This document shows positions 11,695-54,160 of a DNA stretch of 64,000 nucleotides, in pieces. The stretch is from an uncultured Christensenellaceae bacterium (GTDB lineage Bacteria > Bacillota > Clostridia > Christensenellales > UBA3700). The notes below the pieces were generated by a model. It was not told the origin of the DNA. It did no database searches and saw nothing but the letters and a program-made list of their open reading frames with translations. The stretch is taken from assembly GCA_910588545.1 (NCBI GenBank), contig CAJUOU010000003.1:54248-118247 (forward strand), read 5' to 3'. Each line of letters begins with the position of its first letter. Position 1 is the first letter of the stretch. The translations under genes were made by a program, and so were the position numbers.

Positions 11695-12593
11695 ACTCCT
11701 TCATCCACACTTTCAGCAGAGATATTTGTATCGCTATTATCTGCAATAGTATCGATTTTTGACGTATTTTTATCAATATCTTCGCTTGAATTGTCTTGAG
11801 TATTTACCTCATTTTTAACTTCGCCACCATTTATATCATTGCTTTTAACTTGCTTGTTTTCGCTAGTATATTTTGTATCCGTAAGTTCAAGGAAAATATC
11901 TTCCAAGCTTTTGCCTTGTTGTTTTTGCTCAAGTTCTTCCATTGTAAAGCTTGCTATGATTTCGCCGTCTTTTATTATTGCAATACGGTCACAAAGTTTT
12001 TCCACAACTTCCAAAACGTGTGAGGAGAAAAACACCACATTACCTTTTTCGCAATGCTCTCTCATAAGCCCTTTTAATTCTTTTGCGGATTTAGGGTCCA
12101 AGCCTGTAAGAGGCTCATCCAATATCCATACTTTAGGCTCGTGTATAAGAGCGCCTATTACGCAAATTTTTTGTTTCATACCATGTGAGTACGACTTAAT
12201 AGGGCTGTCAAGCTTGTCCTGCAAATCAAACCTTATTGACAAATCATTTAGCCTTTGGTCACGGTCTTGCTTGGAAACACCGTAAATATTGGCTAAAAAG
12301 TTAACATACTCCCTACCCGTAAGTTTATCGTAAACACTGTGATTGTCGGAAACATAGCCGATATTCTTTTTAGCTGAAATACTGTCCTTTGCCATATCAT
12401 AGCCTGCAATTTCTATACTTCCGTCGTTGTAAGGAAGTATACCCGTAATGCACTTGATAGTCGTTGACTTACCTGCACCATTTGCTCCTATAAAGCCAAA
12501 CACCTCTCCGTCATTTACGATAAGGCTTAAATTTTTTACCGCAAATCTGTCGGCGTTTTTGTACATTTTTGACAAACTGTTAATTTTAATCAT
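11691..12593 (-). CDS. ABC transporter ATP-binding protein with ~70-aa low-complexity acidic tail
   Basis: Walker A GANGAGKST, signature YSHGMKQK and Walker B VWILDEP. The C-terminus after ~aa 230 is N/D/S/E-rich. Confidence 0.9.
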   Translation of the reverse strand: MIKINSLSKMYKNADRFAVKNLSLIVNDGEVFGFIGANGAGKSTTIKCITGILPYNDGSIEIAGYDMAKDSISAKKNIGYVSDNHSVYDKLTGREYVNFLANIYGVSKQDRDQRLNDLSIRFDLQDKLDSPIKSYSHGMKQKICVIGALIHEPKVWILDEPLTGLDPKSAKELKGLMREHCEKGNVVFFSSHVLEVVEKLCDRIAIIKDGEIIASFTMEELEQKQQGKSLEDIFLELTDTKYTSENKQVKSNDINGGEVKNEVNTQDNSSEDIDKNTSKIDTIADNSDTNISAESVDEGV

Positions 12594-12639: not shown

Positions 12640-13938
12640 TCAACCTTTGTTTTTCTTAATAACTTTTGCTCTTACAAGAGTACTCTCCTTTCCGTTTGTA
12701 GACGGAATATACAATTTTTCATCCCTTAAACTATCTGGCAGATACTGTTGCTCAACCCAACCTCCAAAGGAATGCGGATATTTGTACCCCTCCACTTTTT
12801 CAACCTTAAAATTTGCATCGCGCAAATATAACGGTACAATGTCATCTTTTGATTTATTGACAAGTTCGACAGCTTTATCCAAAGCGTTTACCACGCTGTT
12901 TGACTTGCTTGCCTCACATACATAAATAATACTATTTACAAGTGGCAGTCTACCCTCGGGCATACCAATATTTTGAATTGCAAACATTGCCGAAGTTGCC
13001 ATAAGTTGTGCCATAGGGTCTGCCATACCAACATCCTCTGCACTATGAGCAATCAGTCTCCTTGCAATAAGCATTGGGTCACAACCGCTTTCAATCAAAC
13101 GTATTGCCCAATATACCGCGGCATCCGAATCACTACCACGAAGACTTTTGCAAAATGCACTAAGCATATCGTAATACATAGATTCGTCTATCGAAAGTGC
13201 CTTTTTTTGTATAGACTCCTCTGCGATATTCTTATTGATAATTATCTTACCTTGGCTGTCGGGTTGAGTAGTAACAACTGCAAGCTCCAACGCATTGTAA
13301 GCAGTACGCAAATCCCCATCACTTGCCCATACTATATGGTTAAGTGCCTCATCGGTTATTTTTATCTCATAGTTACCCAAACCATTTTCCTTATCCGACA
13401 AAGCTTTATTTAAAGCTTGCTTAATATCTTGGGAGTTAAGCTTTTTAAACTCGAATATCCTACACCTTGAGACAATAGCCCTTGTCATTGATATAAACGG
13501 ATTTTCGGTCGTTGAGCCTATAAATACGATATAACCTTGCTCTATCCCCGCAAGCACTGAGTCTGATTGTGCTTTATTCCATCTATGGCACTCGTCAAGC
13601 ATAAGATAAGTTTTTTTGCCGTACATTTTCAATCTTTCTTTGGCATCTTCTATAACTTTTTTAGCCTCCGCAACACCGCTGGAAACTGCATTCAACCTTA
13701 CAAAGTCTGCCTTTGTCGTGTTTGCGATTATATTTGCCAAAGTAGTTTTACCGCACCCCGGCGGTCCGTAAAATATAATGCTACCAAGGCTATCCGCCGC
13801 AATAGCTCTTCTTAACAACTTGCCTTTGCCCACAATATGAGTCTGCCCAACAAAATCATCAAGACTTGTCGGTCTCATCCTTTCCGCAAGCGGTGCAAGT
13901 TTACTTGTATTATCCATAAAATCAAACAAATTATCCAT
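12640..13938 (-). CDS. rarA: Replication-associated recombination protein A (AAA+ ATPase)
   Basis: LAERMRP...GPPGCGKTT...LDECHRWNK...ALRGSDSDAAVYW, typical of MgsA/RarA. Confidence 0.92.
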   Translation of the reverse strand: MDNLFDFMDNTSKLAPLAERMRPTSLDDFVGQTHIVGKGKLLRRAIAADSLGSIIFYGPPGCGKTTLANIIANTTKADFVRLNAVSSGVAEAKKVIEDAKERLKMYGKKTYLMLDECHRWNKAQSDSVLAGIEQGYIVFIGSTTENPFISMTRAIVSRCRIFEFKKLNSQDIKQALNKALSDKENGLGNYEIKITDEALNHIVWASDGDLRTAYNALELAVVTTQPDSQGKIIINKNIAEESIQKKALSIDESMYYDMLSAFCKSLRGSDSDAAVYWAIRLIESGCDPMLIARRLIAHSAEDVGMADPMAQLMATSAMFAIQNIGMPEGRLPLVNSIIYVCEASKSNSVVNALDKAVELVNKSKDDIVPLYLRDANFKVEKVEGYKYPHSFGGWVEQQYLPDSLRDEKLYIPSTNGKESTLVRAKVIKKNKG

Positions 13939-14096
13939 ATAAACATTTTACACCTAATTATTAGCCGTTGTCAATAGTTATCAAAACTATATTTTATCAC
14001 AAATTATTATATATTAAACGCTTAATAATTTATATAGCACAATTTAAATGTATTAATCCGAAAGTTAAATATGCCTATTTAAGCCTAATTAATTTA

Positions 14097-14269
14097 ACAT
14101 AGAATAAGTATATCTATGTACAAAATCGAAGATTTTTTGAGTTTAAATATATAATTTTTGTATGCTTAAAGTAAAGAGTTTACAAAACCTTTATCATAAC
14201 GTTGACATTATCTTACTTTTTAGTTTAAAATATACATATAATATGTACATAGATATACTTATTCCATGT
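14097..14269. promoter_or_regulatory. Candidate invertible promoter element (inverton), copy 1
   Basis: IR-L ACATAGAATAAGTATATCTATGTACA at 14097-14122. IR-R at 14244-14269 is its reverse complement with 1 mismatch. The core carries TTGACA (14202-14207)-18-TAAAAT (14226-14231) reading toward +. Confidence 0.5.
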
Positions 14270-14420
14270 ACCCAAACTTTACATTAAAGGCAAATATTTA
14301 ACCCCAATAGTCCCGATTTTTGATAGGATTATTGCAGTGAACAGCACTTTTTGCCAACTTGAAACTTTACACAAAAAGTTACACCCCAAAATTAAATGTT
14401 TCGGGGTGTATTTTATTTTT
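14238..14420 (+). ncRNA. Candidate ~180-nt sRNA (copy 1), from the core promoter to an intrinsic terminator
   Basis: Predicted TSS ~7 nt after the -10. Hairpins: GGCAAA/TTTGCC (14289-14294 with 14350-14355) enclosing a 9-bp stem (14305-14313 with 14326-14334), then AACTT/AAGTT (14356-14360 with 14376-14380), then terminator ACACCCC...GGGGTGT plus T-run (14381-14420). No plausible ORF. Confidence 0.4.
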
Positions 14421-14569
14421 AAGATTTATATCTTCTATCAAAATGCTAGAAAAAATGTGGCTCATTTAATGATTATCTGCTTAATCAACTTTTATCTTAA
14501 ATTGCATTAGGCATTAAATTATCTTTATACCAAAAACCATTTATTGCTATATAAGTTAACTAACAAAAA

Positions 14570-14602
14570 ATATCGGGGTGAGATTCACTCCGATATTTTT
14601 TG
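14570..14602. terminator. Bidirectional terminator after the minus-strand gene 14682-16016
   Basis: 11-bp stem ATATCGGGGTG / CACTCCGATAT (one G-U pair) flanked by A-run and T-run. Confidence 0.65.
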
Positions 14603-14681
14603 TTAATTAAATTAAAAACAACACTTGTCGCAATTATTCTAAAAATTATAATCTTAATCAATCGTATTGACTGCTAAATTA

Positions 14682-16228: not shown

Positions 16229-17143
16229 TTACCGTCTAAGTAGTTTTCCTACTCTGTTCATCATTGACGTTTTGTGGTCAAACATCGAGTGTGCATATCT
16301 ATTTAACGTAATTGTAGGGTTTGCATGTCCCAAAATTTCCGACAATGTTTTAACATCCATACCGCACTCTAACGCACGTGTTGCAAAAGTATGTCTTAAG
16401 GAGTGGAAGCCCTTGTGAGCAATGCCCAAATCCAACAACATTTTTTCAAAAAACCTTTGATATGTCCTTACACCCGAGCCATAGTCTGTCCTGCCTGGGA
16501 TAACATACTTGGACTCCGCATTTCTTCTCATAACTTTAAGATAAGGCACAAGCTGTTTAGGCATTGGTATTATCCTTTGAGAAGTATGTGTCTTAGGGGT
16601 GTCGATTACTTTTACATAGCCGCTCTCCCCCCAACTGTCGTGACAAGACTTGGAAACTTTGATAACGCACTTTCTCATATCCAAATCCGACCACTCAAGT
16701 GCCAACAACTCGCCTAAACGAATACCTGTATAAAGTGTCAAAAGCACACCGAAATACTTTGGTTTGTCAATAAAGACGATAAAGTTTTCAAGCTTTCTTT
16801 GCTCATAGATTGAAAAACACTCCACACGTTTTAGCTGTTGCTTTGGACGGGTAAGATAGTTTGAATATTCCTTGTCTATTATATCCAATTCCACAGCCTT
16901 GACAAGCGACAACTTTAATAGTGAAATCATTCCGTGAATCGTTGCACTTGCATATCCTTGATACATTTTTGTGTTGACAAATTGCTGCAACACAGCTGTC
17001 GACAACTCGTTCAAGTGATATTCACCTAGCTCAGGCAAAATATGAGCTTTTGCTAAATGACAATACTTTTCGTATGTCCTTTCCTTTACTTGTGACTTTA
17101 CATAGCAGTTAAGCCACTCACTGCACCATTGTTTGTAAACCAT
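16229..17143 (-). CDS. Tyrosine site-specific recombinase (phage-integrase/Xer family), orphan
   Basis: Full catalytic set visible: TGIRLGE (Arg), HSLRHTF (His-x-x-Arg), LGHANP (His), RYAHS (Tyr). An N-terminal SAM-like core-binding domain is present. Start at MVYKQW (ATG 17143), with GGAGG 8 nt upstream. No phage, IS or ICE genes are adjacent. Confidence 0.9.
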   Translation of the reverse strand: MVYKQWCSEWLNCYVKSQVKERTYEKYCHLAKAHILPELGEYHLNELSTAVLQQFVNTKMYQGYASATIHGMISLLKLSLVKAVELDIIDKEYSNYLTRPKQQLKRVECFSIYEQRKLENFIVFIDKPKYFGVLLTLYTGIRLGELLALEWSDLDMRKCVIKVSKSCHDSWGESGYVKVIDTPKTHTSQRIIPMPKQLVPYLKVMRRNAESKYVIPGRTDYGSGVRTYQRFFEKMLLDLGIAHKGFHSLRHTFATRALECGMDVKTLSEILGHANPTITLNRYAHSMFDHKTSMMNRVGKLLRR

Positions 17144-17355
17144 AATTGGTTCCTCCATAAAAAAATTTATTTCACTTTTAAAAAAGTGATACTTTAATTA
17201 TAATTCACAATTTGGCAGTTTTAAATATTTTTTCTTTACTTTTTCCGAAAATTTACATATATTTTTAATAATTATTTTACATTGATTTTATTTTAGAGAT
17301 TTTTTCTCACATAATTATTAAATAATTTTAACTTTTACTATACATTTGTTTTATT

Positions 17356-20321: not shown

Positions 20322-20363
20322 ATTTAATATCGATTTTTGTAAGCTTTTTACTTAAAACCTATT

Positions 20364-22113: not shown

Positions 22114-22148
22114 CAAAAAAAATTGCCCGTTTTAATTAAACAGACAAT
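22114..22148 (-). terminator. Terminator of 22173-23471
   Basis: On the minus strand TTGTCTG...CGGGCAA (two G-U pairs) followed by TTTTTTTT. Confidence 0.5.
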
Positions 22149-22172
22149 TTAATATCGATTTTTGAACTATTT

Positions 22173-23471
22173 TTATAATTTTGCATCTTTAGTAGCAGGG
22201 TTATTTATCATTTTCCCGTTACTCTCAAACCTTGAGCCATGACAACTGCAATCCCAACTATGTTCCCTTTTGTTATACTTTAATGCACATCCTAAATGCG
22301 GGCAACGTTTAATTGTCGGACACAACATATTTACCACAACAGCGCCTATATTAGCAAACAGTTGCATTCTTAAAACACGTCTTTTTGTAGCAAAAGTTTT
22401 TGCAAATTCATTATCCTTGCCGCAAACAATGTCTTTTAAAACCATAGCCCCTACCATAGAGCCTGTCATTCCCCACAAATTAAATCCTGTTGTTACAAAC
22501 ACGTTATTAAGATTCCCGTATCTACCTATATATGGCATATCGTCAAGGGTTACACAATCTTGATTTGCCCACAAATATTTGACTTCCGCATCAGGATAAA
22601 ACTTGTCCTTAAAGTCTTTCAACTGCTCTAGTGCTTTGGTTTTGCAACCCGTTCTGTGTTCTCCTTTGCCGACTATCAATAAATCATTGTAATTCCTAAA
22701 ATAAAAACCCTCTTCCTTATCGTCTATAAAACTGCCATTCAACTTGTTTTCAACTTGCAAAGCCATAACGTATGAACGTTTTTGGTGCATTTTGATAAAA
22801 AACCAACCGTGTGTATTGATAAACGGAAAGTGACTTGCAACAATCGCTTGCTTAAACTTTATATTGCCTTTATCGGTAAAAGCCATGTCGCCGTCAATCT
22901 TTTTTACAAATGTGTTTTCGTATATTTTTAGTTTTTCGGCTAGTTTGTACAAAAATTTCAACGGATGAAACTGTGCCATATCATTAAATTTAACGGCACT
23001 TCTTATATCGTAAGGCAATTCCGTTTCAAAAACAAGCTCGGCATCATATCCAAGTTTTTTCAAAGCCTTTACTTCGTCATTCAAATTGTAATCTTTAGAG
23101 TACATGTACGACGGAGTTATTTCAAAATCGCAATCGATTTGCTCCCTGTTTATAAGTTGCTTAAACTCCTCTACAGCGGATAAATTTGCCATCAAATAAT
23201 TTTTGGCATTTTCCTCGCCGTAATACTTTATTAAATCTTTATACGGCGTATCATGTTGCGCTGTAATTACTGCGGTGGTTTTTGCAGTCATACCACTTCC
23301 TATTTGTGCCCCCTCAACCAAAACAACATTTTTACCCTCACGCATTAAATAGTACGCGGTCAATATACCTGCCATTCCTCCACCAATAACCAATATATCG
23401 CAGCCTATGTCTCTGTTTAACTGTTCAAATTCTTTTTTCTGCGAAAACTCGCTCCATACACTTTTATCCAT
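22173..23471 (-). CDS. FAD-dependent oxidoreductase fused to a C-terminal Rieske [2Fe-2S] domain
   Basis: Dinucleotide fold DILVIGGGMAGILTAYYL. Rieske ligands CPHLGC...CSCHGS. Confidence 0.85.
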   Translation of the reverse strand: MDKSVWSEFSQKKEFEQLNRDIGCDILVIGGGMAGILTAYYLMREGKNVVLVEGAQIGSGMTAKTTAVITAQHDTPYKDLIKYYGEENAKNYLMANLSAVEEFKQLINREQIDCDFEITPSYMYSKDYNLNDEVKALKKLGYDAELVFETELPYDIRSAVKFNDMAQFHPLKFLYKLAEKLKIYENTFVKKIDGDMAFTDKGNIKFKQAIVASHFPFINTHGWFFIKMHQKRSYVMALQVENKLNGSFIDDKEEGFYFRNYNDLLIVGKGEHRTGCKTKALEQLKDFKDKFYPDAEVKYLWANQDCVTLDDMPYIGRYGNLNNVFVTTGFNLWGMTGSMVGAMVLKDIVCGKDNEFAKTFATKRRVLRMQLFANIGAVVVNMLCPTIKRCPHLGCALKYNKREHSWDCSCHGSRFESNGKMINNPATKDAKL

Positions 23472-23555
23472 ACAATTAGTTTGTTCATTTTATTAAAATT
23501 ATTACTACATTTTATAAATAACCCGATTTTCGCAGCATTTTTTTATTTTTACAAT

Positions 23556-23597: not shown

Positions 23598-26396
23598 TTA
23601 AAAGAATAAGTTTATCATAAGTAATTTATCTATTACATTTCTTACAATTTCTGCATCTGCAGATGTTACATTGCCTTTGTTGACTACCATGCTTGCCAGC
23701 TTCTTTTCCGTACTCAAACTTTGGTATAATGTATCGTCACTTGCTAATTGTCTTAGGTATGATACATCGCTTGCACTTATCCTGCCGTCTCCGTTCACAT
23801 CCCCTAATACGGATAAAGTTATTCTTTCCACTTTACTACCCGATTGGTACTCCATATACCAACCTGTTCCAATAGCTAACTCTTTGCCGTTATTCAGTAA
23901 ATTTTCATTCACATTAGCATTGCCTTTGTCATATATTAACATGCCTTTACTGTTGTATATTTGCAACTTGGTTATATCAAACATTAAATTATTGACAAAT
24001 TCGTTTACGCTTGTATTAGGAGTAATATTGCCTAAAATCAATTTGCCGTTGTTATTTGTTGCAACTACTTCGCTATCATTTACCAATCGATAAATACCAT
24101 TTTCCCTATAACTTTTTCTAACCAATTTATCTCCGTCCTGTTCCAAATATAAAAAGTCATAAATGCCGTTTTTAATCATACTTTTATCTTCGATTGTGTA
24201 GGTTAAACTTATCTCCTCCGTTCCGCCTGTTGCCCACTCGTAATTACTCGTGTCTTTAATAGTTATTTTTGCGGTATGAACACCTGCCGTCTTAGCCTTA
24301 TTTCCCTCGATTTCCATTTTGTCATCATCAAAATTATCTGGCGTAAATACATGTTCCTCTCCGTCCAAAATGTAGTTTGCACTTCCGCTTGGAGCAGTCA
24401 ATTTTGCTTTTGTAATATTATAATATTTTGTATTTGAGGAAGCTTTTATCTTATAGTTTTTATTGCTTAAGGCAATGGCTACAGCTTTATACCCGCTACC
24501 TGCATTTATATTGCCGCCTTGTATGGTAACAGTACACTCGCTATCCTCCGCTATGCTTGCGGCTGGGCTTTGCACTTTTCCGTTATATACCAGATTGTCA
24601 TTATTCCATACTACATTTACTTCCTTAGGCAAAATGGTAAACATAAATGTAGGATTTTTATAATTACCTGCAGAATAAAAAGCATAACTTCCCGCATCCC
24701 TCAATGTACGACTTGTAAATGGAGCATCTTCTCCTTGCATATAAATTTCGCCTGTTGCGGAAATTACATAATCACGCCCCGTGTAGTTTACTGTCGCATT
24801 AGACCCGCCGTTTGTTTGACCACCTGTCCACTTCCAAGTCAAGTCGGTAGCAGTATTATCTTCATCTTTCAAAATAGCCTCTGTGCCCGAAGTGCCTATT
24901 CGTTTATTGCTGTTTGAAAAGAAATATCTGCTTGGAGTGATATCGTAATTGCCACCTGTATAATATCCGTAGGTAAATTCTCCTGTGTAATCGCTACTCA
25001 ACAAAACACCGACATGTGTTGTACTACTTGAAGTAGCCAATTTTCCTACTACCCTAATCCTCTCGCCTTTTGTCAAAAAAACATCTGCAGCACCGCTTGA
25101 GTTTGTATTATTATAAATTTGAGCACCTGCACCGATTGCAATAGTACCGTATGCACTGGTTACAGCGTGGTGTGTATTTATACCTGCTCCGTCCTTAGCA
25201 GAAATATTATTGTAAATTTTGCAGTTTCTTATAATAACATCACTTGACACAATAGTAATAGCTCCGTATGTATCAAAACTATTATTCCTAATTTCGCCGC
25301 CATTAAAATTAAATGTACCCACTTGCGTGTAAACTACTCCTGCACCGCTTTTATTAGCCAAATCATTCATAAAATAATTTCTTTCTATTATACCGTCGTC
25401 CATATTGAACTCTTTACAAACAACACGCATAGCGCATCCCCATCCATGGGCGGCATTTCTAGATATTAATCCACCGGTTATATTTACCGTAGATTTGTCA
25501 TTATAAGCACTTATGGCTCCACCCGTATCAATAGCAGAATTATTATGTATAATTCCTCCGTTAATTTGCAATTTTTTTGCTTGAAAATTTATTGCTCCGC
25601 CATCCCCTGAAATTATTCCATTATGTACGCCGATTGCTTGGTTATTAATTATCATTCCGCTATTAATTGTAATCGAGCTGTTTATTCCGGAATAAATAGC
25701 ACCTCCTCCTTGCGAGCCTTGTGCAATATTTCCGTAAATCATCCCGCCGTTCATCTCAAAGTAGCCCTCGTAGCTAACAACTAGTGCTCCACCGTCATTT
25801 GTAATATATCCGCCTGTTATACCACCCGCACCATAACTTTGCAAATTTGATTCCGGATTTTTATTATACGCATCCAAAACTTTTTGCTCATCGTATTTAC
25901 TATCCATAAGAATCAAATTGCCCCTTACATACATAACATTACCCCAATTAACCGCTACAGTCAATTTTCTGTCAATTTTAAAACCATTTAAATCCAATGT
26001 AATTGTCGCTCCTTCCGGAACAGCAATGCTACCATTGAAAAAGCTATTTTCATAACTGCCAAAATAGTTATTGCCGCTAGTAGGAGCAATCCAATCCCTT
26101 GACAATACAACTTTGATATGCAAGCCTTCCAATGACTCGACAATTACGTCATTCCACTCTTCGGCAATCTCTTCACAAGTAGTTCCTTTAAATATTACTT
26201 CCTTATCTATTTTACCGACAGTACTTTTTGTGATATTATTTTTGGAGTCTATGCTAACATTATCGATATTACTTGTAGGTGCACTTTCCAAAACATTTTT
26301 GTTCGCATTTGCAAAAACTACTATCCCGATTAATAATAGACAAGATATTACTGACACAAAAAATATTATTCCTGCCCTTTTAATAATCTTTGCCAT
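23598..26396 (-). CDS. Large cell-surface protein: signal anchor, Pmp-like GGAI beta-helix repeats, MBG-type Ig-like repeats, C-terminal dockerin
   Basis: Repeated GGAI/GGAL motifs (GGALVV, GGGAIYSG, DGGAINF, TGGAISAY). YNGKVQSP and YKAVAIALSNKNYKI blocks. C-terminal GDVNGDGRISASDVSYLRQ...VNKGNVTSADAEIVRN is a type-I dockerin pair. Start set at MAKIIKRAG (ATG 26396, GGAGG at 26404-26408) rather than the track start at 26447. Confidence 0.85.
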   Translation of the reverse strand: MAKIIKRAGIIFFVSVISCLLLIGIVVFANANKNVLESAPTSNIDNVSIDSKNNITKSTVGKIDKEVIFKGTTCEEIAEEWNDVIVESLEGLHIKVVLSRDWIAPTSGNNYFGSYENSFFNGSIAVPEGATITLDLNGFKIDRKLTVAVNWGNVMYVRGNLILMDSKYDEQKVLDAYNKNPESNLQSYGAGGITGGYITNDGGALVVSYEGYFEMNGGMIYGNIAQGSQGGGAIYSGINSSITINSGMIINNQAIGVHNGIISGDGGAINFQAKKLQINGGIIHNNSAIDTGGAISAYNDKSTVNITGGLISRNAAHGWGCAMRVVCKEFNMDDGIIERNYFMNDLANKSGAGVVYTQVGTFNFNGGEIRNNSFDTYGAITIVSSDVIIRNCKIYNNISAKDGAGINTHHAVTSAYGTIAIGAGAQIYNNTNSSGAADVFLTKGERIRVVGKLATSSSTTHVGVLLSSDYTGEFTYGYYTGGNYDITPSRYFFSNSNKRIGTSGTEAILKDEDNTATDLTWKWTGGQTNGGSNATVNYTGRDYVISATGEIYMQGEDAPFTSRTLRDAGSYAFYSAGNYKNPTFMFTILPKEVNVVWNNDNLVYNGKVQSPAASIAEDSECTVTIQGGNINAGSGYKAVAIALSNKNYKIKASSNTKYYNITKAKLTAPSGSANYILDGEEHVFTPDNFDDDKMEIEGNKAKTAGVHTAKITIKDTSNYEWATGGTEEISLTYTIEDKSMIKNGIYDFLYLEQDGDKLVRKSYRENGIYRLVNDSEVVATNNNGKLILGNITPNTSVNEFVNNLMFDITKLQIYNSKGMLIYDKGNANVNENLLNNGKELAIGTGWYMEYQSGSKVERITLSVLGDVNGDGRISASDVSYLRQLASDDTLYQSLSTEKKLASMVVNKGNVTSADAEIVRNVIDKLLMINLFF

Positions 26397-26420
26397 AATA
26401 AAACCTCCGTTTTTTACCTT

Positions 26421-26593
26421 ACATAGAATAAGTATATCTATGTACAAAATCGAGGATTTTCGGGAAAGTTTTTTAAAGTTTTTGTAGCTTTTTTGTAAAG
26501 CAATTACAAAATGTTTAATTAAACGTTGACAAAAGTTTACTTTTGACCCTATAATATATATATAAAATGTACATAGATATACTTATTCCATGT
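26421..26593. promoter_or_regulatory. Candidate invertible promoter element (inverton), copy 2, abutting the surface-protein start
   Basis: IR-L at 26421-26446 and IR-R at 26568-26593 (1 mismatch). The core carries TTGACA (26526-26531)-18-TATAAT (26550-26555) reading + and away from the gene, whose ATG lies 24 nt outside IR-L. Confidence 0.55.
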
Positions 26594-26744
26594 ACCCAAA
26601 CTTTACATTAAAGGCAAATATTTAACCCCAATAGTCCCGATTTTTGATAGGATTATTGCAGTGAACGGCACTTTTTGCCTACTTTAAACTTTACAAAAAA
26701 AGTAACACCCCAAAACTAATCGTTTCAGGGTGTATTTTTTATTT
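26562..26744 (+). ncRNA. Candidate ~180-nt sRNA (copy 2)
   Basis: Same predicted structure as copy 1. Hairpin TACTTT/AAAGTA (26680-26685 with 26699-26704) shows a compensatory A-T to T-A swap relative to copy 1. Terminator ACACCC...GGGTGT plus T-run at 26705-26744. Confidence 0.4.
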
Positions 26745-26854
26745 AAGTCAATTTTAAATTTGTCAAAAATTAAGACAAAAAATGGCTTATTTATAAGTTG
26801 TTGATAGAAATTTAAGCAATTAAAATCGCCTTGCATAACTGCAGAGCGTTAGAT

Positions 26855-30134: not shown

Positions 30135-30386
30135 TTTCGCCTCGCAAATATAAATAAAGCCTTTTTATAATATATTTTTATTTTAACAAATTTATTTGCT
30201 TTTGTCAAGAATTGCAATATATTGTAACATTTAAGTGATTTTTCGTCTGCAAAACAACCACTTTTTTACACACAAATAAAGTTTACCCACGATTTTCAAC
30301 TGTTTTTTTGCAATTTTTCTTTTTGCATTAACTTTGTTAATAAAAAATAAAAAAAGCCCTAATTTAATAGAGCTTTTTATCATAAA

Positions 30387-32681: not shown

Positions 32682-33032
32682 TGGTGGAACTGACGGGAGT
32701 TGAACCCGTGTCCAAACGGGGATTGACTATGCTTTCTTCGTGCGCAGTGCAAATTTTGAATTTTTCGCGATGTCGCCTTTTGCACAAGCTACATTTTGAT
32801 GAGGTGTTAATTTATCTTATTGCTCCACACCAAAAGCAATAAGACCTTCCTATCTAAATGATGCCACTTACCTATCCGATAGGTCTATAGGGGTGACAAG
32901 CTCGCTAATTAAGCAGCGAAAGCTAATTGATTATTATTTTTTGCGTTTATATTTAACGTTCGTTTTTACGTAGTCGAACCTACGGCACGCTTACACAATC
33001 TCACACCCACTTGTCGAATCCGTAACAGCCCC
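32682..33032 (-). ncRNA. ssrA: tmRNA (SsrA)
   Basis: 5' GGGGCTGTTACGGATTCGACAAG... and 3' ...GGACACGGGTTCAACTCCCGTCAGTTCCACCA (T-arm, acceptor, CCA). Tag reading frame GCA AAA AAT AAT AAT CAA TTA GCT TTC GCT GCT TAA (32909-32944) gives AKNNNQLAFAA. Confidence 0.93.
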
Positions 33033-35706: not shown

Positions 35707-37614
35707 TTATGCAATTTCTTCGGCTTTTTTACCATTGTAAAGTTCATAATATCTACCGCGCTTTGCAATTAATTGGTCGTGGTTGCCACGCTCGATAATT
35801 TCTCCGTGTTCCAAAACCATAATACAGTCGGAGTTTTGAATAGTCGAAAGCCTGTGTGCAATTACAAAACATGTTCTGCCTTGCATTAAGCTATCCATAC
35901 CTTTTTGTACTAAAATTTCCGTTCTTGTATCTATACTGCTTGTAGCCTCATCCAAAATCATAAGCGGAGTATCCGCAAGTATCGCACGGCTTATAGAAAG
36001 TAACTGTCTTTGACCTTGGGATAACGACGAGCCGTCGCCATCGATAACCGTATCGTATTTGTCAGGCAACATCTCTATAAATTCATGAGCTCCGCCACGC
36101 TTGCAAGCGCTTACCACTTCCTCGTCGGTAGCGTTTGGTCTGCCGTATCGTATGTTTTCAGCAATAGTTCCGCTGAACAAATTAACGTCCTGCAAAACTA
36201 TGCCTAAAGATTTTCTTAAATCTTCCTTTTTTATCTTGTTTATATTGATGCCGTCATATCTGATTTTTCCGTCATCAATATCGTAAAACCTGTTAATCAA
36301 ATTTGTAATTGTAGTTTTACCCGCACCCGTAGAGCCGACTAACGCAATTTTTTCGCCCGGTTGTGCGTTTATTGTTATATCCTTAAGCACTAACTTATCT
36401 TCCACGTAACCGAAGTCAACATGGTCTAGTTCAACCCTGCCTTCAAGTTTTGCATAAGTCAAAGTACCATCGCCATGAGGGTGTTTCCAAGCCCAATCGC
36501 CTTCTTCACACTCTATAAATTCGCCATTTTCTTCCTTACCTTTTACAAGAGTAACATAACCGTTATCTACTTCCTCCTCTTCCGAAAGCAGTTGGAAAAT
36601 ACGTTTAGAGCCCGCAGTTGCCATAGCAAAGTTGTTGATTTGCTCTGCAAATTGGTTGATTGGCATTGTGAAAGACTTGGATAATGGCAAGAATGTTACA
36701 ACCGCAGCAAGTGATGTGCCGCCTACACCCGTGATTACCAAAGCACCGCCAATCAAAGCTATCAAAACATAAAGTAAATGTCCCATACCCATCATAATAG
36801 GCATTATAGTACACGCAAGTTTAACTGCCCTAAAGCTAGCATTACGCCAATTATCGTTGATTTGAGCAAATTCTTTTTTACAAACTTCTTCGTGGTTAAA
36901 TACTTTAACTACTCTTTGACCTCCAATCATTTCCTCTACATAGCTGTTTACTTCGCTTATTGCTTTTTGTTGTCCGGCAAAGTATTTTACCGAACGTTTG
37001 CCGATAAACTGAGCCACAAACAACATTATTCCGCCGTAAACAAGTGTACAAGCTGCCAAAATAGGACTTAATATGAACATGGAAACCACAACTGCGATTA
37101 AAGTTGTAATCAAATTTATAAGTTGCGGTATACCTTGCGACAATAACTGCATCATAGTATCCGTATCGTTGGAAAAATAGCTCATTATATCGCCGTTATT
37201 TTTCCTATCGAAATACTTAACAGGCAATTTTTGCATTTTGATAAACATATCGTTTCTTATGGAACGCATTGTGTTTTGTGAAATGATAATCATTAATTGA
37301 TTGTATACCAAAGCGCTTAGCATACCGGCAGCGTAAATGCCTGCCATATAGCAAATTGCCGTAATAACATTGCTAAAGTCAGGGTTTTCAGTCCCGATTA
37401 GCGGATTGACATAATCGGTAAGCAAGGTTTTGATAAACATCGTTCCCGCAACGGATGCAAGTGCCGAAATCAAAATACCTCCCACCACAAATATAAACAA
37501 AGTTCTATACTTTTTGAAGATTGTTTTGAATATCAACGCGATGGTATTAGGTTGTTTTTGAGATGATTTTTTGTTTGTTACTCCCGATTTTCGAAGGGTT
37601 TTAGTTGTTGTCAT
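35707..37614 (-). CDS. ABC transporter permease/ATP-binding protein (type I exporter half-transporter, subunit B)
   Basis: Six-TM domain plus NBD (GSTGAGKTT, LSQGQRQLLSISRA, ILDEATS). Start at the second ATG (37614), 8 nt from GGAGG. Confidence 0.9.
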   Translation of the reverse strand: MTTTKTLRKSGVTNKKSSQKQPNTIALIFKTIFKKYRTLFIFVVGGILISALASVAGTMFIKTLLTDYVNPLIGTENPDFSNVITAICYMAGIYAAGMLSALVYNQLMIIISQNTMRSIRNDMFIKMQKLPVKYFDRKNNGDIMSYFSNDTDTMMQLLSQGIPQLINLITTLIAVVVSMFILSPILAACTLVYGGIMLFVAQFIGKRSVKYFAGQQKAISEVNSYVEEMIGGQRVVKVFNHEEVCKKEFAQINDNWRNASFRAVKLACTIMPIMMGMGHLLYVLIALIGGALVITGVGGTSLAAVVTFLPLSKSFTMPINQFAEQINNFAMATAGSKRIFQLLSEEEEVDNGYVTLVKGKEENGEFIECEEGDWAWKHPHGDGTLTYAKLEGRVELDHVDFGYVEDKLVLKDITINAQPGEKIALVGSTGAGKTTITNLINRFYDIDDGKIRYDGININKIKKEDLRKSLGIVLQDVNLFSGTIAENIRYGRPNATDEEVVSACKRGGAHEFIEMLPDKYDTVIDGDGSSLSQGQRQLLSISRAILADTPLMILDEATSSIDTRTEILVQKGMDSLMQGRTCFVIAHRLSTIQNSDCIMVLEHGEIIERGNHDQLIAKRGRYYELYNGKKAEEIA

Positions 37615-43034: not shown

Positions 43035-43990
43035 GCGAATTACACAATAAAGAAATGCGTCAAGTTTACGTTGACAATTTGATTAAATACTCTAAACTCG
43101 ACAGAAGAATTGTCGTGCTTGAGGCAGACCTTATGAACTGCATAGGTACAGGCAAGTTTAAGGAAGCTTTTCCAAGACGTTTTATTAACTGCGGAATTGC
43201 GGAAAGTAATATGATAGGTGTGGCAGCAGGTCTTGCAAGTTGCGGCAAATTGCCTTTCTGCTCTTCTTTTACTCCGTTTGCTACAAGAAGATGCTATGAC
43301 CAAATCGCAGTTAGCGTTGGATATACAAAACAAAATGTAAAAATAGTAGGAACAGACCCCGGCATTATGGCTCAAATAAACGGCGGCACACACATGAGCT
43401 TTGAGGACGTTGCTCTTATGACTCAAGTACCCGATATGATTGTTGTTGAGCCTTGCGATTGCGTTTGCCTTGACAAACTATTCCCTCAAATTTTAAAATG
43501 TGATAAACCGATGTATATTAGATTGCAAAGGAAAAAGACTCCTCCAATCTATGACGAAAAAGCTAAAATCGACCTTTTTAAAGCTAATACTGTTGTGGAC
43601 GGAGATAGCCTTACCATCATAGCTTGTGGCATTATGGTACACCGTGCTATAGCGGCATCAATGACTTTGAAAAACCAAGGTATTAATGCAAGGGTTATTG
43701 CACTTCACACTTACAAGCCTTTGGATAGTGAAACAATACTTAATGCTTGTCGCGAAACAGGTGCGGTAGTAGTTTGCGAAAACCATCACTTGATAGGCGG
43801 CTTGGGCTCTGAAGTTGCTGCACTGCTTATGCAAAATGATGTGCTTATCCCTATGACTAGGGTTGGTATCGGTGACAGATACGGCGAAGTCGGCAAAGAA
43901 GCTTACCTTGCGGAAGTTATGCACCTAACCGAGCAAGACATTGTGGAAAAAGCGCAAGAAGCTTACAAAAGAAAACTTTCAAATATGTAA
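43031..43990 (+). CDS. tkt: Transketolase, C-terminal (pyrimidine-binding) subunit
   Basis: FINCGIAESNMIGVAAGLA motif. ATGA start/stop overlap with the N subunit and a GGAGG RBS. Confidence 0.92.
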   Translation: MSELHNKEMRQVYVDNLIKYSKLDRRIVVLEADLMNCIGTGKFKEAFPRRFINCGIAESNMIGVAAGLASCGKLPFCSSFTPFATRRCYDQIAVSVGYTKQNVKIVGTDPGIMAQINGGTHMSFEDVALMTQVPDMIVVEPCDCVCLDKLFPQILKCDKPMYIRLQRKKTPPIYDEKAKIDLFKANTVVDGDSLTIIACGIMVHRAIAASMTLKNQGINARVIALHTYKPLDSETILNACRETGAVVVCENHHLIGGLGSEVAALLMQNDVLIPMTRVGIGDRYGEVGKEAYLAEVMHLTEQDIVEKAQEAYKRKLSNM

Positions 43991-44062
43991 TTATAAAAAA
44001 ACAAAAACTACTGAATAAGCTCAGTAGTTTTTGTTTTTACCCCCGATTTTCAATTAATTTTT
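43934..44062 (+). repeat. Left copy of island-flanking direct repeat (authentic tkt 3' end + terminator + ACCCCCGATTTTCAATTAATTTTT)
   Basis: Aligns with 53937-54064. I counted 11 mismatches in the 57-nt coding part and about 6 differences in the 72-nt non-coding part. Confidence 0.85.
44002..44038 (+). terminator. tkt terminator
   Basis: 13-bp stem CAAAAACTACTGA/TCAGTAGTTTTTG followed by TTTTT. Confidence 0.85.
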
Positions 44063-44170
44063 GTCAAAAATTATCTTTTTATTTTAAAACAAATTCATTT
44101 AAACACTTAAATAATTAAAGAGTTTTAATGGCGTTTTATCAATTAAATAGCAAGTGAAAATGTATCATGT

Positions 44171-47071: not shown

Positions 47072-50000
47072 TCAATTTAAAAACATATCAAAAAATTCAT
47101 TTGAGTAAGCAGAAGGCAAATCTACTATAGAATCTTCAACTTGATGTTGTCCTGCAACTGGTTTACTTACTTGATCACCTACAGGTCCCACAGAAGTGGT
47201 GCCATCACGACCATATTCACCATTTTTACCATCGCTGCCATTGTTTCCTATAATTCCAGCATTTCCTCCTTTACCACCAGTACCTTTGTGACCAATATTG
47301 CCATTTTTACCATTGATACCACCATCAGTAGTTAAAGTTTCAACATTAGTTCCTTGAGCAGCACTTCCTGCAACTCCATTGGTTCCACCATTGCCACCTT
47401 TACCACCATCACCAGGGTCACCTGTTCCAGTAAACCAATCTCCACTAACATCATCAGCACCTTTGCCGCCATTACCACCATTGCCGCCATTGCCACCGTT
47501 TCCACCGTCGCCACCTTTAATATAATAATTAGAACCACGAGCAACATTAATTATATTATTTGATGCATAAATAGCATATCCGCCATTACCACCGTTTCCA
47601 CCAGCAGATCCATCTTTTCCTGGAGCGCCATCATCACCCTTTATAGGTTTAAAAATACTACCTCTTGGAGGTCTTTCACCATCTTTACCATTTTCACCAT
47701 TATAGCCGCTACTACCATTTCCGCCATTACCACCATAGATATAAACTTTAGAATCAGAATTAAAAGCCATTAATGTAACTTCCTTAGCTTTAATTCCATA
47801 ACCGCCATTAGCACCAGCTACACCATTACCACTTCCATCAGCTCCATTTCCGCCTTTAATGGTAACTGAACCAAAGTAAGTTAAATAAATTGCTGAACTT
47901 TCACAATCAATAGCATTAACTGCACCTCCAGTTGGTGCTTTTATATCAATATTTTTCAAGCCAAATAGAATTGCACCATTTCTGTTTAAAACATTAATTT
48001 TTGCAGTTATTGTCATATATCCATTGCCAATAAATGTTATCATTTTTACAGAAGAGTTTATATTTATAGTATACTTCATACTACTTGAAGCATTAGAAAA
48101 ATCTACTATAGCAACTCTATCAGTGATAGACAAATTCTCACTTGCTGTAATAACTCTTCCTTCCCATTCTACTACTAATTCAATATCTTTAAATATTTCT
48201 TTTGTATTTTCAAAACTATTACCATTATAACTCCATTTTACAAATAAATAACCAAATTTTTGTGGAGTAGCAAGTTCTGTGTTAAACACTGGATTGTCTA
48301 CTGTAAATTCATTTGGCAAATCAAACACAACATCGGCATACCTAAAATTATATGTAATATTATATTTAATTAAATCATATTGAGGGTATAATGTGTTGCT
48401 ATCAATTTGATCTTCCCATACCCATGTTTTTCTTGCATCAATGATAAGATTTCCACCTATTGGTTTATCAAACCAACCTTTAAATATCTTACCTTCTATT
48501 TCTGGAATTGCTATATCCAATGTTTGTCCATATTCAATAAATACTTCTTGTCCCCCATTATCACCGATAATAATTTGATATTTTGATGTTTCATATTTTG
48601 CTAATAGACTAATATCGTCATAAAAATCAATCATATCATTAACATTCAATCTTGTTCCATTATATTCCCAACCACAAAAATCTTTACCAGTTATTACTGG
48701 AGCAACAATATAGTTATCAAACTTAGACCCATAATACTCTGTCCTACTGCCAATAAAATTATTATTTATATCATAAAAATTGATTGTTAATTCTTTTGCT
48801 TTTAATGTATTAGTCAAATTAACAAAACAGATATTCTCTTGATATTCCTGCAATCTAGCTTCTTTTACATACAATATAACTTTATCATCAAAACAATCCC
48901 CATCTAAAACTGGTGGAATATCAGAAGTAAATATTATGCTTTCTAAATCTGTTGCACCTTTAAATGCTGAAACTCCTATAGAATCAATTTTATCAGACAA
49001 TATAATTTGAGTAGGGACATTGTTATCAAAACAATCTCTTCCTATTCTATGTATATTATCTGGAATTTTTACAATTCTTTCTGTTCCAAAATACTTTAAC
49101 AAAACTTTTCCTAAAATTACAAATTTACTTGCATTATTTGAATACCAAGGGGTATCTAACAAAGCGGTAATATCACAATCAATAATATTATTTGCATTAT
49201 TAATATATGCCAATGAACTATTTGTGAATGTTTCAGGTCCAATAAACTCTACTTGATTTAAATTAATAGTTCTAATATTTTTGTTGTTTTTAAATAATCT
49301 AGCATTTAAAATTGTTACTTTATCAGGAATTGTTATTTCAGAAACTACAGGATTTGCATATATTGCCACTTTTTTATCTGTATCTGTAACATTACATTTA
49401 ATTAAAATATTATCTTGCCAAACATAATTTGCATTGCTTTTAAAATTAGTAATCATAGTGCCTAAAAAAGCATCATCTTCAATACTATTAACACCATAAG
49501 GTATGATAAAATCAGTTATTGCTGTATTTGCAAAAGCACATTTAGTTATGATATTAAGAGAGGTATTAGCACTTAAATTTACATTGTTCAAATTACTACA
49601 TCCTGCAAATGCTCTTTCGCCCAAATTGTTCAAATATGGCAAATTGATAGAAGTTAATCCTAAACAATTTTCAAAAGCTGAATTGCCAATATTTTTCAAC
49701 TTATCCATAGCACTTCCTATATTAATACTTGAACAATTATAAAATGCTTCTGCGCCAACATTTTGTAAATTACCTAAGTCATCTAATGCTTCCAATTTAG
49801 TACAATTTTTAAAAGCATAATCTCCAATGTGTGTTACATTGTTCAAATTAGTTATAGATTTTAAATTAGTACAATTTTCAAAAGTTCCTATACCTATATT
49901 TTTAATGTTTTTGGATAAAGCCAAATTTTCAATACTATTATTAGCAAATACATAATCACCTAATTCAGTAACATTTTTTTCATAAATTGTATCAGGAATA

Positions 50001-50782
50001 GTTGTTATACCTTTTGCTTCGGGAATAAGTAATCTATTAATTTTTATTTCATTATTATTAATTTCCACTGCTTCGTATAGAAATTGCGGTCTTAATCCTA
50101 TAACATTTGATTCTATTAATATGTCATATTCTGCCTCTCCTTGTGGTGAATCATTAAAAATTTGCACACAATCACCTTGTGAAACATGTTGAATGATTTT
50201 TTTTGCAATTTCTTGATCACTTAAATCTAAATATTCAAGTCCATATTTTCGCCCTTTCTCATTATTAAATAAATCCATTTCTTTATCAACACCTTGCGAA
50301 TCATCTCCACTTTCATGTGCATCTGCATAAGTTTTAGCATCATCAACTCCCACATATTTAACCATTAATGCATTCCAATATGTATGTCTAAAAGCATCCC
50401 CATTATCCTTATAAAGACTTCCATCATAATAATATAGTGCTTCAGCTTTTGCTAACTTACTACACTCATATATTTGCAATGCAGCGCCTGGTTTTGTAAA
50501 TATAAATGTTTTTTCATCAGGCGAAAGATCTCCATAAAAATCATGAAATTTATCATATAAAGATTTTTCATCTTCAGTTTCATTATTATCTGTTTCATCA
50601 TTAATAGATTGCCTCTCTATTTGATTTACACTCAATTCACTAAACTTTGCTTTGTTGATATTAGCAAATTGCATAGTTTTTCCTATTAAAATTGTCCAAC
50701 TAAATATTGCAATAATCAAAATTGTTGGAATCAATAAAAACTTAAAAAGTTTTGAATTTTTAATTCTTTTATGTTTATCCAT
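47072..50782 (-). CDS. Giant surface protein: TM anchor, DUF6973-like domain, BspA-type LRRs, Listeria-Bacteroides repeats, Gly-rich/collagen-like C-terminus
   Basis: GDAFRHTYWNALM...DAHE...MDLFNNEKGRKYG block. More than 10 repeats of the IGxxAFxNCxxLxxI type. FCGWEYNG and FKGWFDKPIGG repeats. 14 uninterrupted G-X-Y triplets (GINGKNGNIGHKG...GRDGTT). Confidence 0.8.
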   Translation of the reverse strand: MDKHKRIKNSKLFKFLLIPTILIIAIFSWTILIGKTMQFANINKAKFSELSVNQIERQSINDETDNNETEDEKSLYDKFHDFYGDLSPDEKTFIFTKPGAALQIYECSKLAKAEALYYYDGSLYKDNGDAFRHTYWNALMVKYVGVDDAKTYADAHESGDDSQGVDKEMDLFNNEKGRKYGLEYLDLSDQEIAKKIIQHVSQGDCVQIFNDSPQGEAEYDILIESNVIGLRPQFLYEAVEINNNEIKINRLLIPEAKGITTIPDTIYEKNVTELGDYVFANNSIENLALSKNIKNIGIGTFENCTNLKSITNLNNVTHIGDYAFKNCTKLEALDDLGNLQNVGAEAFYNCSSINIGSAMDKLKNIGNSAFENCLGLTSINLPYLNNLGERAFAGCSNLNNVNLSANTSLNIITKCAFANTAITDFIIPYGVNSIEDDAFLGTMITNFKSNANYVWQDNILIKCNVTDTDKKVAIYANPVVSEITIPDKVTILNARLFKNNKNIRTINLNQVEFIGPETFTNSSLAYINNANNIIDCDITALLDTPWYSNNASKFVILGKVLLKYFGTERIVKIPDNIHRIGRDCFDNNVPTQIILSDKIDSIGVSAFKGATDLESIIFTSDIPPVLDGDCFDDKVILYVKEARLQEYQENICFVNLTNTLKAKELTINFYDINNNFIGSRTEYYGSKFDNYIVAPVITGKDFCGWEYNGTRLNVNDMIDFYDDISLLAKYETSKYQIIIGDNGGQEVFIEYGQTLDIAIPEIEGKIFKGWFDKPIGGNLIIDARKTWVWEDQIDSNTLYPQYDLIKYNITYNFRYADVVFDLPNEFTVDNPVFNTELATPQKFGYLFVKWSYNGNSFENTKEIFKDIELVVEWEGRVITASENLSITDRVAIVDFSNASSSMKYTININSSVKMITFIGNGYMTITAKINVLNRNGAILFGLKNIDIKAPTGGAVNAIDCESSAIYLTYFGSVTIKGGNGADGSGNGVAGANGGYGIKAKEVTLMAFNSDSKVYIYGGNGGNGSSGYNGENGKDGERPPRGSIFKPIKGDDGAPGKDGSAGGNGGNGGYAIYASNNIINVARGSNYYIKGGDGGNGGNGGNGGNGGKGADDVSGDWFTGTGDPGDGGKGGNGGTNGVAGSAAQGTNVETLTTDGGINGKNGNIGHKGTGGKGGNAGIIGNNGSDGKNGEYGRDGTTSVGPVGDQVSKPVAGQHQVEDSIVDLPSAYSNEFFDMFLN

Positions 50783-53910: not shown

Positions 53911-53939
53911 ATTATATCTTACTTGCCACAGTATGTCAA
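53911..53939 (-). promoter_or_regulatory. Consensus sigma-A promoter of the island sigma gene
   Basis: On the minus strand TTGACA (53934-53939)-17-TATAAT (53911-53916). It lies on the antisense strand of the tkt relic. Confidence 0.6.
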
Positions 53940-53993
53940 GATTTTGTTAAAAAAGCACAAGAAACTTACAACAGGAAACTTGAAAATATATAA
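53913..53993 (+). pseudogene. Relic 3' end of a second, diverged transketolase C-subunit gene
   Basis: 53937-53993 translates to QDFVKKAQETYNRKLENI-stop, against QDIVEKAQEAYKRKLSNM-stop for the real tkt end (43934-43990). Weaker similarity continues ~8 codons further upstream, and a stop at 53904-53906 closes the frame. Confidence 0.7.
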
Positions 53994-54064
53994 TTATAAA
54001 AAATAAAAACTACTGATTTAAACTCAGTAGTTTTTGTTTTACCCCCGATTTTCAATTAATTTTT
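53937..54064 (+). repeat. Right copy of island-flanking direct repeat (relic tkt end + second terminator copy + ACCCCCGATTTTCAATTAATTTTT)
   Basis: Same stem AAAAACTACTGA/TCAGTAGTTTTT as 44002-44038 with a different loop. Confidence 0.85.
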
Positions 54065-54160
54065 TTAAAACGCCTTTTAAATTTAAAATCATTTAAATAA
54101 CTTCTTTCATAGGTGTTGTTTTATTTTAGAGCATTGTAACTTTTAAGTTGCATTTAAAAA

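Follow-up and report, generated by a model that had tools for sequence, protein, structure and literature searches.

A probable non-inverting arm of a multi-copy invertible-promoter cassette in mouse-gut Christensenella-like bacteria

Does the segment at 14270-14420 work as an RNA, or is it part of the DNA of the promoter switch beside which it lies? The window, by which we mean the whole stretch of 64,000 nucleotides analysed, raises this question twice, as it holds two copies of the segment. The working idea of the initial annotation was a bistable unit that makes a structured RNA in one orientation and drives the flanking gene in the other. The half of this idea that concerns the promoter held, as the promoter faces the segment and its flip would drive the gene, and the structured RNA did not. 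With moderate confidence, we read 14270-14420 as the outer arm, which does not invert, of a 327-bp invertible-promoter cassette present in many copies; this arm combines an insulating terminator with a conserved DNA spacer of fixed length. The comparative evidence points to such a static cassette arm and not to a structured small RNA.

The cassette, its candidate recombinase and the genes beside it

Two 327-bp modules of one design lie at 14097-14423 and 26421-26747, offset by 12,324 bp. Each contains, in this order, a left inverted repeat (IR-L, 26-27 nt), a 121-bp interior, a right inverted repeat (IR-R), a spacer of about 110 bp and a G+C-rich hairpin between an A-run and a T-run. The 21-nt core of the repeat is found at exactly four sites in the window, 14102-14122(-), 14244-14264(+), 26426-26446(-) and 26568-26588(+), where the chance expectation is none. 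In both window copies and in 24 related full modules, the repeat arms are 26-27 nt long, 96-100% complementary and separated by 121 nt. Each repeat consists of TACATAGA, a 9-nt asymmetric spacer and TCTATGTA (the pattern of the repeat being TACATAGANNNNNNNNNTCTATGTA), and judged by this layout, which is that of tyrosine-recombinase core sites, it is a complete core-type site for a recombinase. Based on the core sites and the repeat sequence, switch 1 is composed of IR-L at 14097-14122, the putatively invertible interior at 14123-14243 and IR-R at 14244-14270, followed by the conserved spacer, that is, the proposed RNA body, at 14270-14380, which was delimited from two family alignments and whose helices are not conserved, and by the terminator hairpin at 14380-14420. 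The corresponding parts of switch 2 are IR-L at 26420-26446, the interior at 26447-26567, IR-R at 26568-26594, the spacer at 26594-26704, recognised by its identity with copy 1, and the hairpin at 26705-26744.

A consensus scan placed one promoter on the plus strand of each interior, directed toward IR-R and the spacer. In switch 1, TTGACA (14202-14207) and TAAAAT (14226-14231) are separated by 18 nt and match the consensus at 11 of 12 positions (14202-14231), and in switch 2, TTGACA-18-TATAAT at 26526-26555 matches at all 12. TTGACA and TAnAAT are invariant across the 24 full modules. The proposal that both promoters read through IR-R into the segment was sound, as these consensus promoters are located inside the IR-bounded 121 bp and have the same facing in every related assembly examinable.

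The two copies are identical from 14243/14244 to 14342, and a 56-nt probe from this part gave two matches without a mismatch. Accordingly, the identity of the first 75 nt or so after IR-R, as it had been described, is confirmed for about 73 nt, through position 14342. Identity is about 90% between this position and the last base of the hairpin T-run, and past about 14423/26747 and to the left of IR-L the copies are unrelated. The segment had also been said to lack an ORF with a ribosome-binding site, and this is correct: the sole ORF has 11 codons from an ATG in IR-R (14266) and is not preceded by a Shine-Dalgarno sequence. A small protein was therefore considered and rejected, as this ATG opens 11 codons in the window's subfamily, with the stop at codon 12, and a longer frame (..YPRFLIVLL..) in subfamilies 2 and 3, in each case without a Shine-Dalgarno sequence.

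The candidate invertase is a 309-aa tyrosine recombinase encoded at 16229-17158 on the minus strand, which matches Pfam Phage_integrase (E = 1e-26) and Phage_int_SAM_3. It scores under every NCBIfam cut-off (PRK09871, 20.9 bits against a cut-off of 222), and its closest solved relative is the Tn1549 integrase. The protein has a core-binding domain and a catalytic domain only, without an arm-binding domain. By these sequence comparisons, it is a generic Xer-like or Tn1549-Int-like enzyme, outside FimB/FimE and any named NCBIfam family.

Putatively controlled by switch 2 is the gene of a 932-aa signal-anchored, dockerin-bearing surface protein (23598-26396, minus strand), whose GGAGG and ATG (26396) follow IR-L within about 25 nt on the minus strand. 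Paralogues starting with MAK(I/C)IKR follow IR-L in most related modules, and by these sequence comparisons the cassette is multi-copy in mouse-gut Christensenella-like genomes, mostly ahead of dockerin-type surface-protein genes. The ribosome-binding site and ATG are found about 20-25 nt past IR-L in copy 2 and most relatives, whereas the arrangement in copy 1 is less clear. If flipped, the copy 2 promoter would drive the gene that has its ribosome-binding site some 20 nt past IR-L. Next to switch 1 is a gene for a RarA/MgsA AAA+ ATPase (12640-13938, minus strand), which starts 160 nt past IR-L. A switch upstream of a housekeeping-type gene is unexpected for a phase-variable promoter, and a switch adjoining RarA/MgsA is also present in the related strain L011 and in L031 (4676-6380), which belongs to a different module subfamily. 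RarA may have its own promoter, TTGACA-18-TAAAAT at 13974-13945. Elsewhere in the window, a 9-nt periodic repeat array (47209-47833) lies inside a 1236-aa minus-strand ORF (47072-50782).

The promoter faces the flank in all of about 33 assembled switches, namely those of the 24 full modules, L030 and nine contigs fetched via the 932-aa protein and RarA. The ON orientation was found in none of them, where consensus assemblies hide minority states, and a search for ON-orientation junction patterns was uninformative, the repeat being symmetric. The single orientation agrees with a large family whose genes are each switched ON in a minority of cells. Considering the inverted repeat pair, the internal promoter and the nearby recombinase gene, the cassette would be an invertible promoter switch served by a tyrosine recombinase; inversion itself we infer, since no assembly was ON-oriented.

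The terminal hairpin and its strand

The hairpin has the G+C-rich stem, the T-run and the compensatory changes expected of an intrinsic (Rho-independent) terminator. The segment had been described as ending in an intrinsic terminator of the plus-strand transcript. This description is partly right: the window's subfamily has a plus-strand T-run (14411-14420 in copy 1), but the consensus scan called terminators on the minus strand only, at 14410-14380 and 26733-26705, with 12 pairs each. In copy 1, with stems at 14381-14387 and 14403-14409, the plus-strand stem has an A·C mismatch. In copy 2, two of the 12 pairs are G·U wobbles on the minus strand, and these are the two mismatches of the plus-strand stem.

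The family alignment gave the same picture. The consensus energy was -12.48 kcal/mol on the minus strand (covariation term -1.29) and -7.58 kcal/mol on the plus strand (-0.14). The hairpin cells of the alignment contain 27 G·U on the minus strand; on the plus strand, A·C cells number 20 and G·U cells only 3. Seven of ten predicted hairpin pairs have double changes on the minus strand. All copies carry the A-run AAACTTTACAnAAAA, which is the minus-strand T-tract (14373-14377 in copy 1). When the tails were compared from the last ACTTTACA as anchor, subfamily 2 was without the plus-strand T-run (tails, for example, TTAATAATAAGG on the plus and TTTTTGTGT on the minus strand). In about 33 of 39 modules, the right-hand neighbour gene and the regulated gene run in the same direction, so the hairpin would stand at the end of the upstream transcription unit. 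Based on the energies, the G·U counts, the scan, the A-runs and the orientation of the neighbours, we therefore consider the hairpin to be foremost a minus-strand terminator, on the strand of the flanking genes, which would shield the switch from read-through and whose stem evolves as minus-strand RNA. In the window, the hairpin is effectively bidirectional by its sequence, yet constrained as minus-strand RNA.

In the proposed mechanism, the minus-strand hairpin would stop the upstream gene's read-through before it reaches the switch, and the downstream gene would then be expressed only after a flip of the promoter toward it. The plus-strand T-run of the window's subfamily would end the OFF-orientation transcript and protect the convergent upstream gene from antisense transcription. 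With this T-run present, a transcript of about 180 nt is a reasonable expectation. Such an OFF-state transcript is probably made, and the predicted RNA of about 180 nt would most likely be a by-product. The spacer itself would act as DNA, for example by marking gene ends, as an insulator element, or as an accessory or architectural site.

Family, fold and sequence blocks of the spacer

A genome scan with the recombinase gave four loci from metagenome-assembled genomes (MAGs) titled uncultured Christensenella sp. or Clostridia, with 77-100% identity. In three of the four, modules are present and adjoin the recombinase gene; none was found within 10 kb of the recombinase in the fourth (L013). 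A DNA pattern was then made from the blocks conserved in those copies, with the 5' side of the proposed stems left free, and a metagenome scan with it returned 37 contigs. Together, the four MAG loci and the 37 metagenome contigs hold 34 distinct flank sequences in three subfamilies, of which the window's own has 21 copies. The search pattern required three conserved blocks and 31 of the 34 copies were fetched with it, so the invariance of the blocks is partly by construction. On the other hand, the switch of L019 (1411-1700, flank 1560-1700), found by the inverted repeat alone, has the same blocks with one mismatch to the search pattern, which indicates that they are not merely an artefact of it. 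L012 and L014, reached via the recombinase, also have these blocks with at most one mismatch to the pattern. The recombinase is 100% identical in 202 collection blocks from mouse-gut and other metagenomes; those contigs are at most 10 kb and end within the module, which multi-copy repeats would explain as well as inversion would. A search of viral and plasmid collections gave no match that would indicate a phage or plasmid origin.

Comparison of paralogues with orthologues indicates exchange among the cassettes. Between copies 1 and 2, the flanks are 95% and the interiors 67% identical, and between copy 2 and its orthologue in strain L011, the flanks are 88% and the interiors 94% identical. 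Thus, flanks of paralogues in one genome resemble each other more closely than flanks of orthologues in different strains do. These identities come from an ungapped matrix, which understates that of L052 and copy 2; by BLAST, L052 is 99.8% identical to copy 2 over 6147 bp covering module and gene. Past window position 26744, the DNA of L052 is unrelated and includes a 676-aa gene with its own terminator (L052 1-2223). Because L052 is unrelated past 26744/26745 although its switch and 932-aa gene are identical to those of the window, a cassette boundary would lie where the hairpin ends on its outer side. L011 (13062-16045) and L056/L057 have an extra dockerin gene of 968-970 aa with its module at exactly the place where the window has one module (14097-14414), and between L053-L055/L058 and L056/L057, a whole cassette is inserted or deleted exactly between directly repeated modules. 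This presence or absence between close strains suggests recombination between modules. From these comparisons we infer that exchange among paralogous cassettes is one source of the 100% identity between copies 1 and 2, and a greater one than selection at the RNA level. Paralogous exchange cannot account for blocks that are common to different subfamilies.

Three other records of the collection deserve mention. L045 (856-960) has a partial flank, from CCCGATTTTT on, and a hairpin without an inverted repeat or promoter, and resembles a module remnant. In L051 (1486-1797), which adjoins a MAKLIKR.. gene, IR-L is present twice, and the two copies are separated by about 260 nt of inserted DNA that is richer in G+C. 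Near the contig end of L023 (9240-9268), the flank runs into an Illumina adapter, AGTTCAGACGTGTGCTCTTCCGATCT, which is an artefact of assembly in the public record.

The fold that had been drawn by eye is the minimum-energy structure given by RNAfold for both copies. It contains GGCAAA/TTTGCC, the 9-bp hairpin CAATAGTCC/GGATTATTG, AGTG/CACT, AACTT/AAGTT and the ACACCCC/GGGGTGT hairpin, and the A/G difference between the copies at 14343 does fall in a loop. The 182 nt that include IR-R and the hairpin fold at -39.8 and -39.1 kcal/mol (z = -4.6 and -3.9) for copies 1 and 2, respectively. The body alone (14270-14380) folds at -18.2 kcal/mol (z = -2.5, 3 of 200 shuffles being as good), and the minus strand folds about equally well (z = -3.7).

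Conservation of this structure across the family, which the initial annotation had suggested checking by covariation, was not supported. RNAalifold retained only the terminal hairpin in the 34-copy alignment, on either strand, and no covariation beyond that of shuffles was found in the window's subfamily. Across the family, the share of paired cells is 62% for P1, 75% for P2, 70% for P3, 72% for P4 and 86% for the terminal hairpin. In the window's subfamily (21 copies), the pairing rate is 89.8%; shuffles average 89.4%, and 51 of 500 reach the observed rate. Four pairs have double changes against 1.8 expected, a count reached by 32 of 500. The compensatory pair 14356/14380 that had been put forward is a real A-T to T-A swap between the copies, but copy 1 alone has A-U there: two further subfamily copies that share the 5' A at 14356 are unpaired at this place, the neighbouring pair is broken in 10 of 21 copies, and the pair sits in the A-run that is the T-tract of the minus-strand terminator. 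Subfamilies 2 and 3 hold CCGATTTTTGATAG-N2-TTATTG and AAACTTTACA at fixed positions but lose the enclosing arms. The 9-bp hairpin is 96% paired in the cells of the window's subfamily, and its three commonest one-sided changes are compatible with pairing on the plus strand (C to U opposite G, A to G opposite U, G to A opposite U). This wobble-compatible evidence amounts to three variable sites, as against several disruptive transversions.

The RNA had not been recognised as a known family, and Rfam agrees with this: at gathering scores, the only match in the window is a tmRNA gene (32682-33032, minus strand, 173 bits), and a relaxed scan of 14050-14650 with E up to 10 gave only sub-threshold matches at chance level. 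A hand check of the regulated gene's leader as an RNA target found no convincing match. A C-rich plus-strand RNA of the Rho-utilisation type was rejected: the flank has on average 21 C and 11 G, but the whole window is equally skewed (mean C-G of +6.4 per 111 nt, with one third of such segments at +10 or more).

What is conserved instead is length and primary sequence. The spacer is 109-111 nt in all 34 copies and carries the blocks TTTACAT (14278-14284), CCGATTTTTGATAG (14313-14326), TTATTG (14329-14334) and AAACTTTACA (14362-14371). TTTACAT lies 8 nt from IR-R and is not among the requirements of the search pattern. As shown by the alignments, the approximately 110 bp between IR-R and the hairpin are conserved in length and in sequence blocks, and not in base pairs. 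The best-conserved block, CCGATTTTTGATAG, forms the loop of the proposed 9-bp hairpin.

This loop and the 3' arm of the hairpin (CCGATTTTTGAnAGG.TTTTT, 14313-14334, plus strand) belong to a motif of about 28 nt, TTTAAT.A.CCGATTTT(T)GA.AGG.TTTTT (short form CCGATTTTTGA), which is strand-biased and recurs in the window on the plus strand only. A position weight matrix built from switch-free copies only scores both module copies at 29.5 bits. In the fetched loci, 18 switch-free copies with at most two mismatches were found, against 4.75 in shuffles, and 13 of the 18 are intergenic. Nine further sites of the window, at 11745-11772, 20323-20350, 22148-22175, 23516-23543, 30282-30309, 37577-37604, 44036-44063, 54038-54065 and 63531-63558, score 11-25 bits (eight of them at least 17), where the shuffle maximum averages 12.5. 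Most of the nine adjoin intrinsic terminators that end minus-strand genes, and three are inside coding sequence. Because the motif recurs elsewhere in this way, the arm resembles generic gene-end punctuation of the organism rather than a dedicated RNA. Between 43934-44070 and 53937-54070, 10 kb apart, a gene end with its terminator and motif is duplicated at 82-90% identity.

Other identities of these sequences were considered and rejected. Hand comparison of the motif with sigma-70 -35, IHF, Fur, ArgR, sigma-D and sigma-B sites revealed no consistent -10 or second half-site, and we claim none of these identities. A second motif copy inside the switch, as in the inside/outside arrangement of fimS, is significant in just 2-3 of 24 modules. 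TTGGCA-18-AATAAT, a candidate promoter on the minus strand of the flank that is preceded by TG, lacks its -35 outside subfamily 1 and has lost the final T of the -10 in about 9 of 35 copies.

Alternative explanations and known switches

If the segment were not a static arm with a DNA spacer, it could be a functional small RNA of about 180 nt that is made in the OFF state and acts in trans or in cis through its invariant single-stranded loop, CCGAUUUUUGAUAG, for example by coordinating the paralogous surface-protein switches. A promoter with 12/12 or 11/12 consensus matches points into the segment in every assembly, the window's subfamily supplies a plus-strand T-run, the fold as described has the lowest predicted energy (z from -2.5 to -4.6), a hairpin loop of this fold contains the conserved block, and the changes in the left arm of that hairpin are mostly compatible with plus-strand wobble. 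However, covariation does not exceed that of shuffles, and in subfamilies 2 and 3 the helices break while the sequence blocks stay. The terminal hairpin is constrained on the opposite strand, with subfamily 2 lacking the plus-strand T-run, and the loop motif is found at many sites without a promoter or switch. Added to this are the lack of an Rfam family even at E up to 10 and of a convincing target in the regulated gene's leader by hand check. We accordingly consider a functional small RNA quite unlikely. A more specific form of this idea, in which each OFF switch transcribes the RNA of about 180 nt with the same invariant 14-nt loop, and the pool reports the count of OFF switches and feeds back on surface-protein expression or on switching, is a highly improbable speculation.

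The two other explanations regard the segment as DNA. As an accessory or architectural site, the flank could position the recombinase or a DNA-bending partner by IR-R and thereby aid synapsis over about 150 bp or bias inversion. Such a site would explain why the length is constant at 109-111 bp across subfamilies otherwise about 70% identical and why sequence, not pairs, is conserved; the invertible segment is also very short (121 bp), one orientation in every assembly would fit a directional bias, and TTTACAT, which was not imposed by the search pattern, resembles the core arm TACAT(A). On the other hand, the recombinase has no arm-binding domain, only 2-3 of 24 modules have a significant second copy of the motif within the switch, and the motif is common off switches, which fits a general DNA-binding protein and shows no link to recombination. 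We regard this as a doubtful but not negligible explanation. It seems very unlikely to us that the segment is nothing more than the conserved end of a gene cassette that duplicates or moves, with gene conversion keeping the copies alike and no function beyond the terminator. The 968-aa gene and its module, present or absent between close strains exactly at module boundaries, would agree with it, as would the L052 breakpoint at the terminator's outer end, the greater similarity of paralogous flanks within a genome than of orthologous flanks between strains, and the partial flank of L045 without any inverted repeat. But blocks and spacing persist in subfamilies in which the other flank sequence has diverged beyond recognition, for which conversion within a genome is insufficient, and no viral or plasmid collection match was found.

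Read as a static arm beside an invertible promoter, the locus can be compared with known switches. Like the cassette, fimS of E. coli has a promoter in a short IR-bounded segment, a tyrosine recombinase gene nearby and a gene that is driven in one orientation only, and in both, sequences outside the repeats matter. The interior of fimS is 314 bp, against 121 bp in the cassette. fimS is flipped by the tyrosine recombinases FimB and FimE, whereas the recombinase of the cassette lies outside this family by its sequence. Unlike fimS, the cassette is multi-copy and has one shared conserved flank with a terminator, and no IHF or Lrp sites were identified in it. The gut invertons, such as the capsular-polysaccharide promoters of Bacteroides, resemble the cassette in other respects: there are many paralogous switches per genome with the same repeats and an internal promoter, they stand ahead of surface-structure genes, and one recombinase serves all. 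They have been catalogued by read-based surveys of orientation. The master invertase of Bacteroides, Mpi, is a serine recombinase, in contrast to the tyrosine recombinase of the cassette, and the host of the cassette differs as well, being a Christensenella-like lineage of Clostridia. We know of no inverton description with a conserved static arm of fixed length and its own terminator, and a search of the literature found no description of an inverton with a static arm plus terminator.

The RecV switches of C. difficile (cwpV, flgB) share with the cassette a Firmicute host, a tyrosine recombinase and short inverted repeats upstream of surface or motility genes. In cwpV-type switches, the promoter lies outside the switch and the orientation changes termination within the 5' leader. 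Unlike in cwpV/flgB, the consensus promoter of the cassette lies inside the switch, and its terminator is outside and static. A switch of the cwpV/flgB type was rejected for the cassette: the conserved promoter lies between the repeats, and the flank's minus-strand candidate loses its final -10 T in the copies noted above. A role of transcription termination in the OFF state, reported for RecV switches (PMC7446863), would be a further trait in common. The hairpin of the cassette is similar to bidirectional terminators between convergent units in being G+C-rich, with an A-run, a T-run and compensatory changes in the stem, and in its placement between a promoter directed one way and a gene ending the other way. 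It differs from them in being part of a repeated cassette, in its one-strand bias across the family and in lacking the plus-strand T-run in one subfamily.

A search of the literature found no report of phase variation in mouse-gut Christensenella-like bacteria. If our reading is right, these organisms would have what is mostly an ordinary family of invertible promoters with a built-in insulating terminator. The family is large and previously undescribed, with at least 34 distinct copies and one core site, TACATAGA-N9-TCTATGTA, ahead of dockerin-type surface proteins. The conservation of the static arm in length and sequence and the strand-biased, genome-wide motif deserve follow-up. If the OFF-state RNA were functional, the phase-variable switch would have an output in both orientations.
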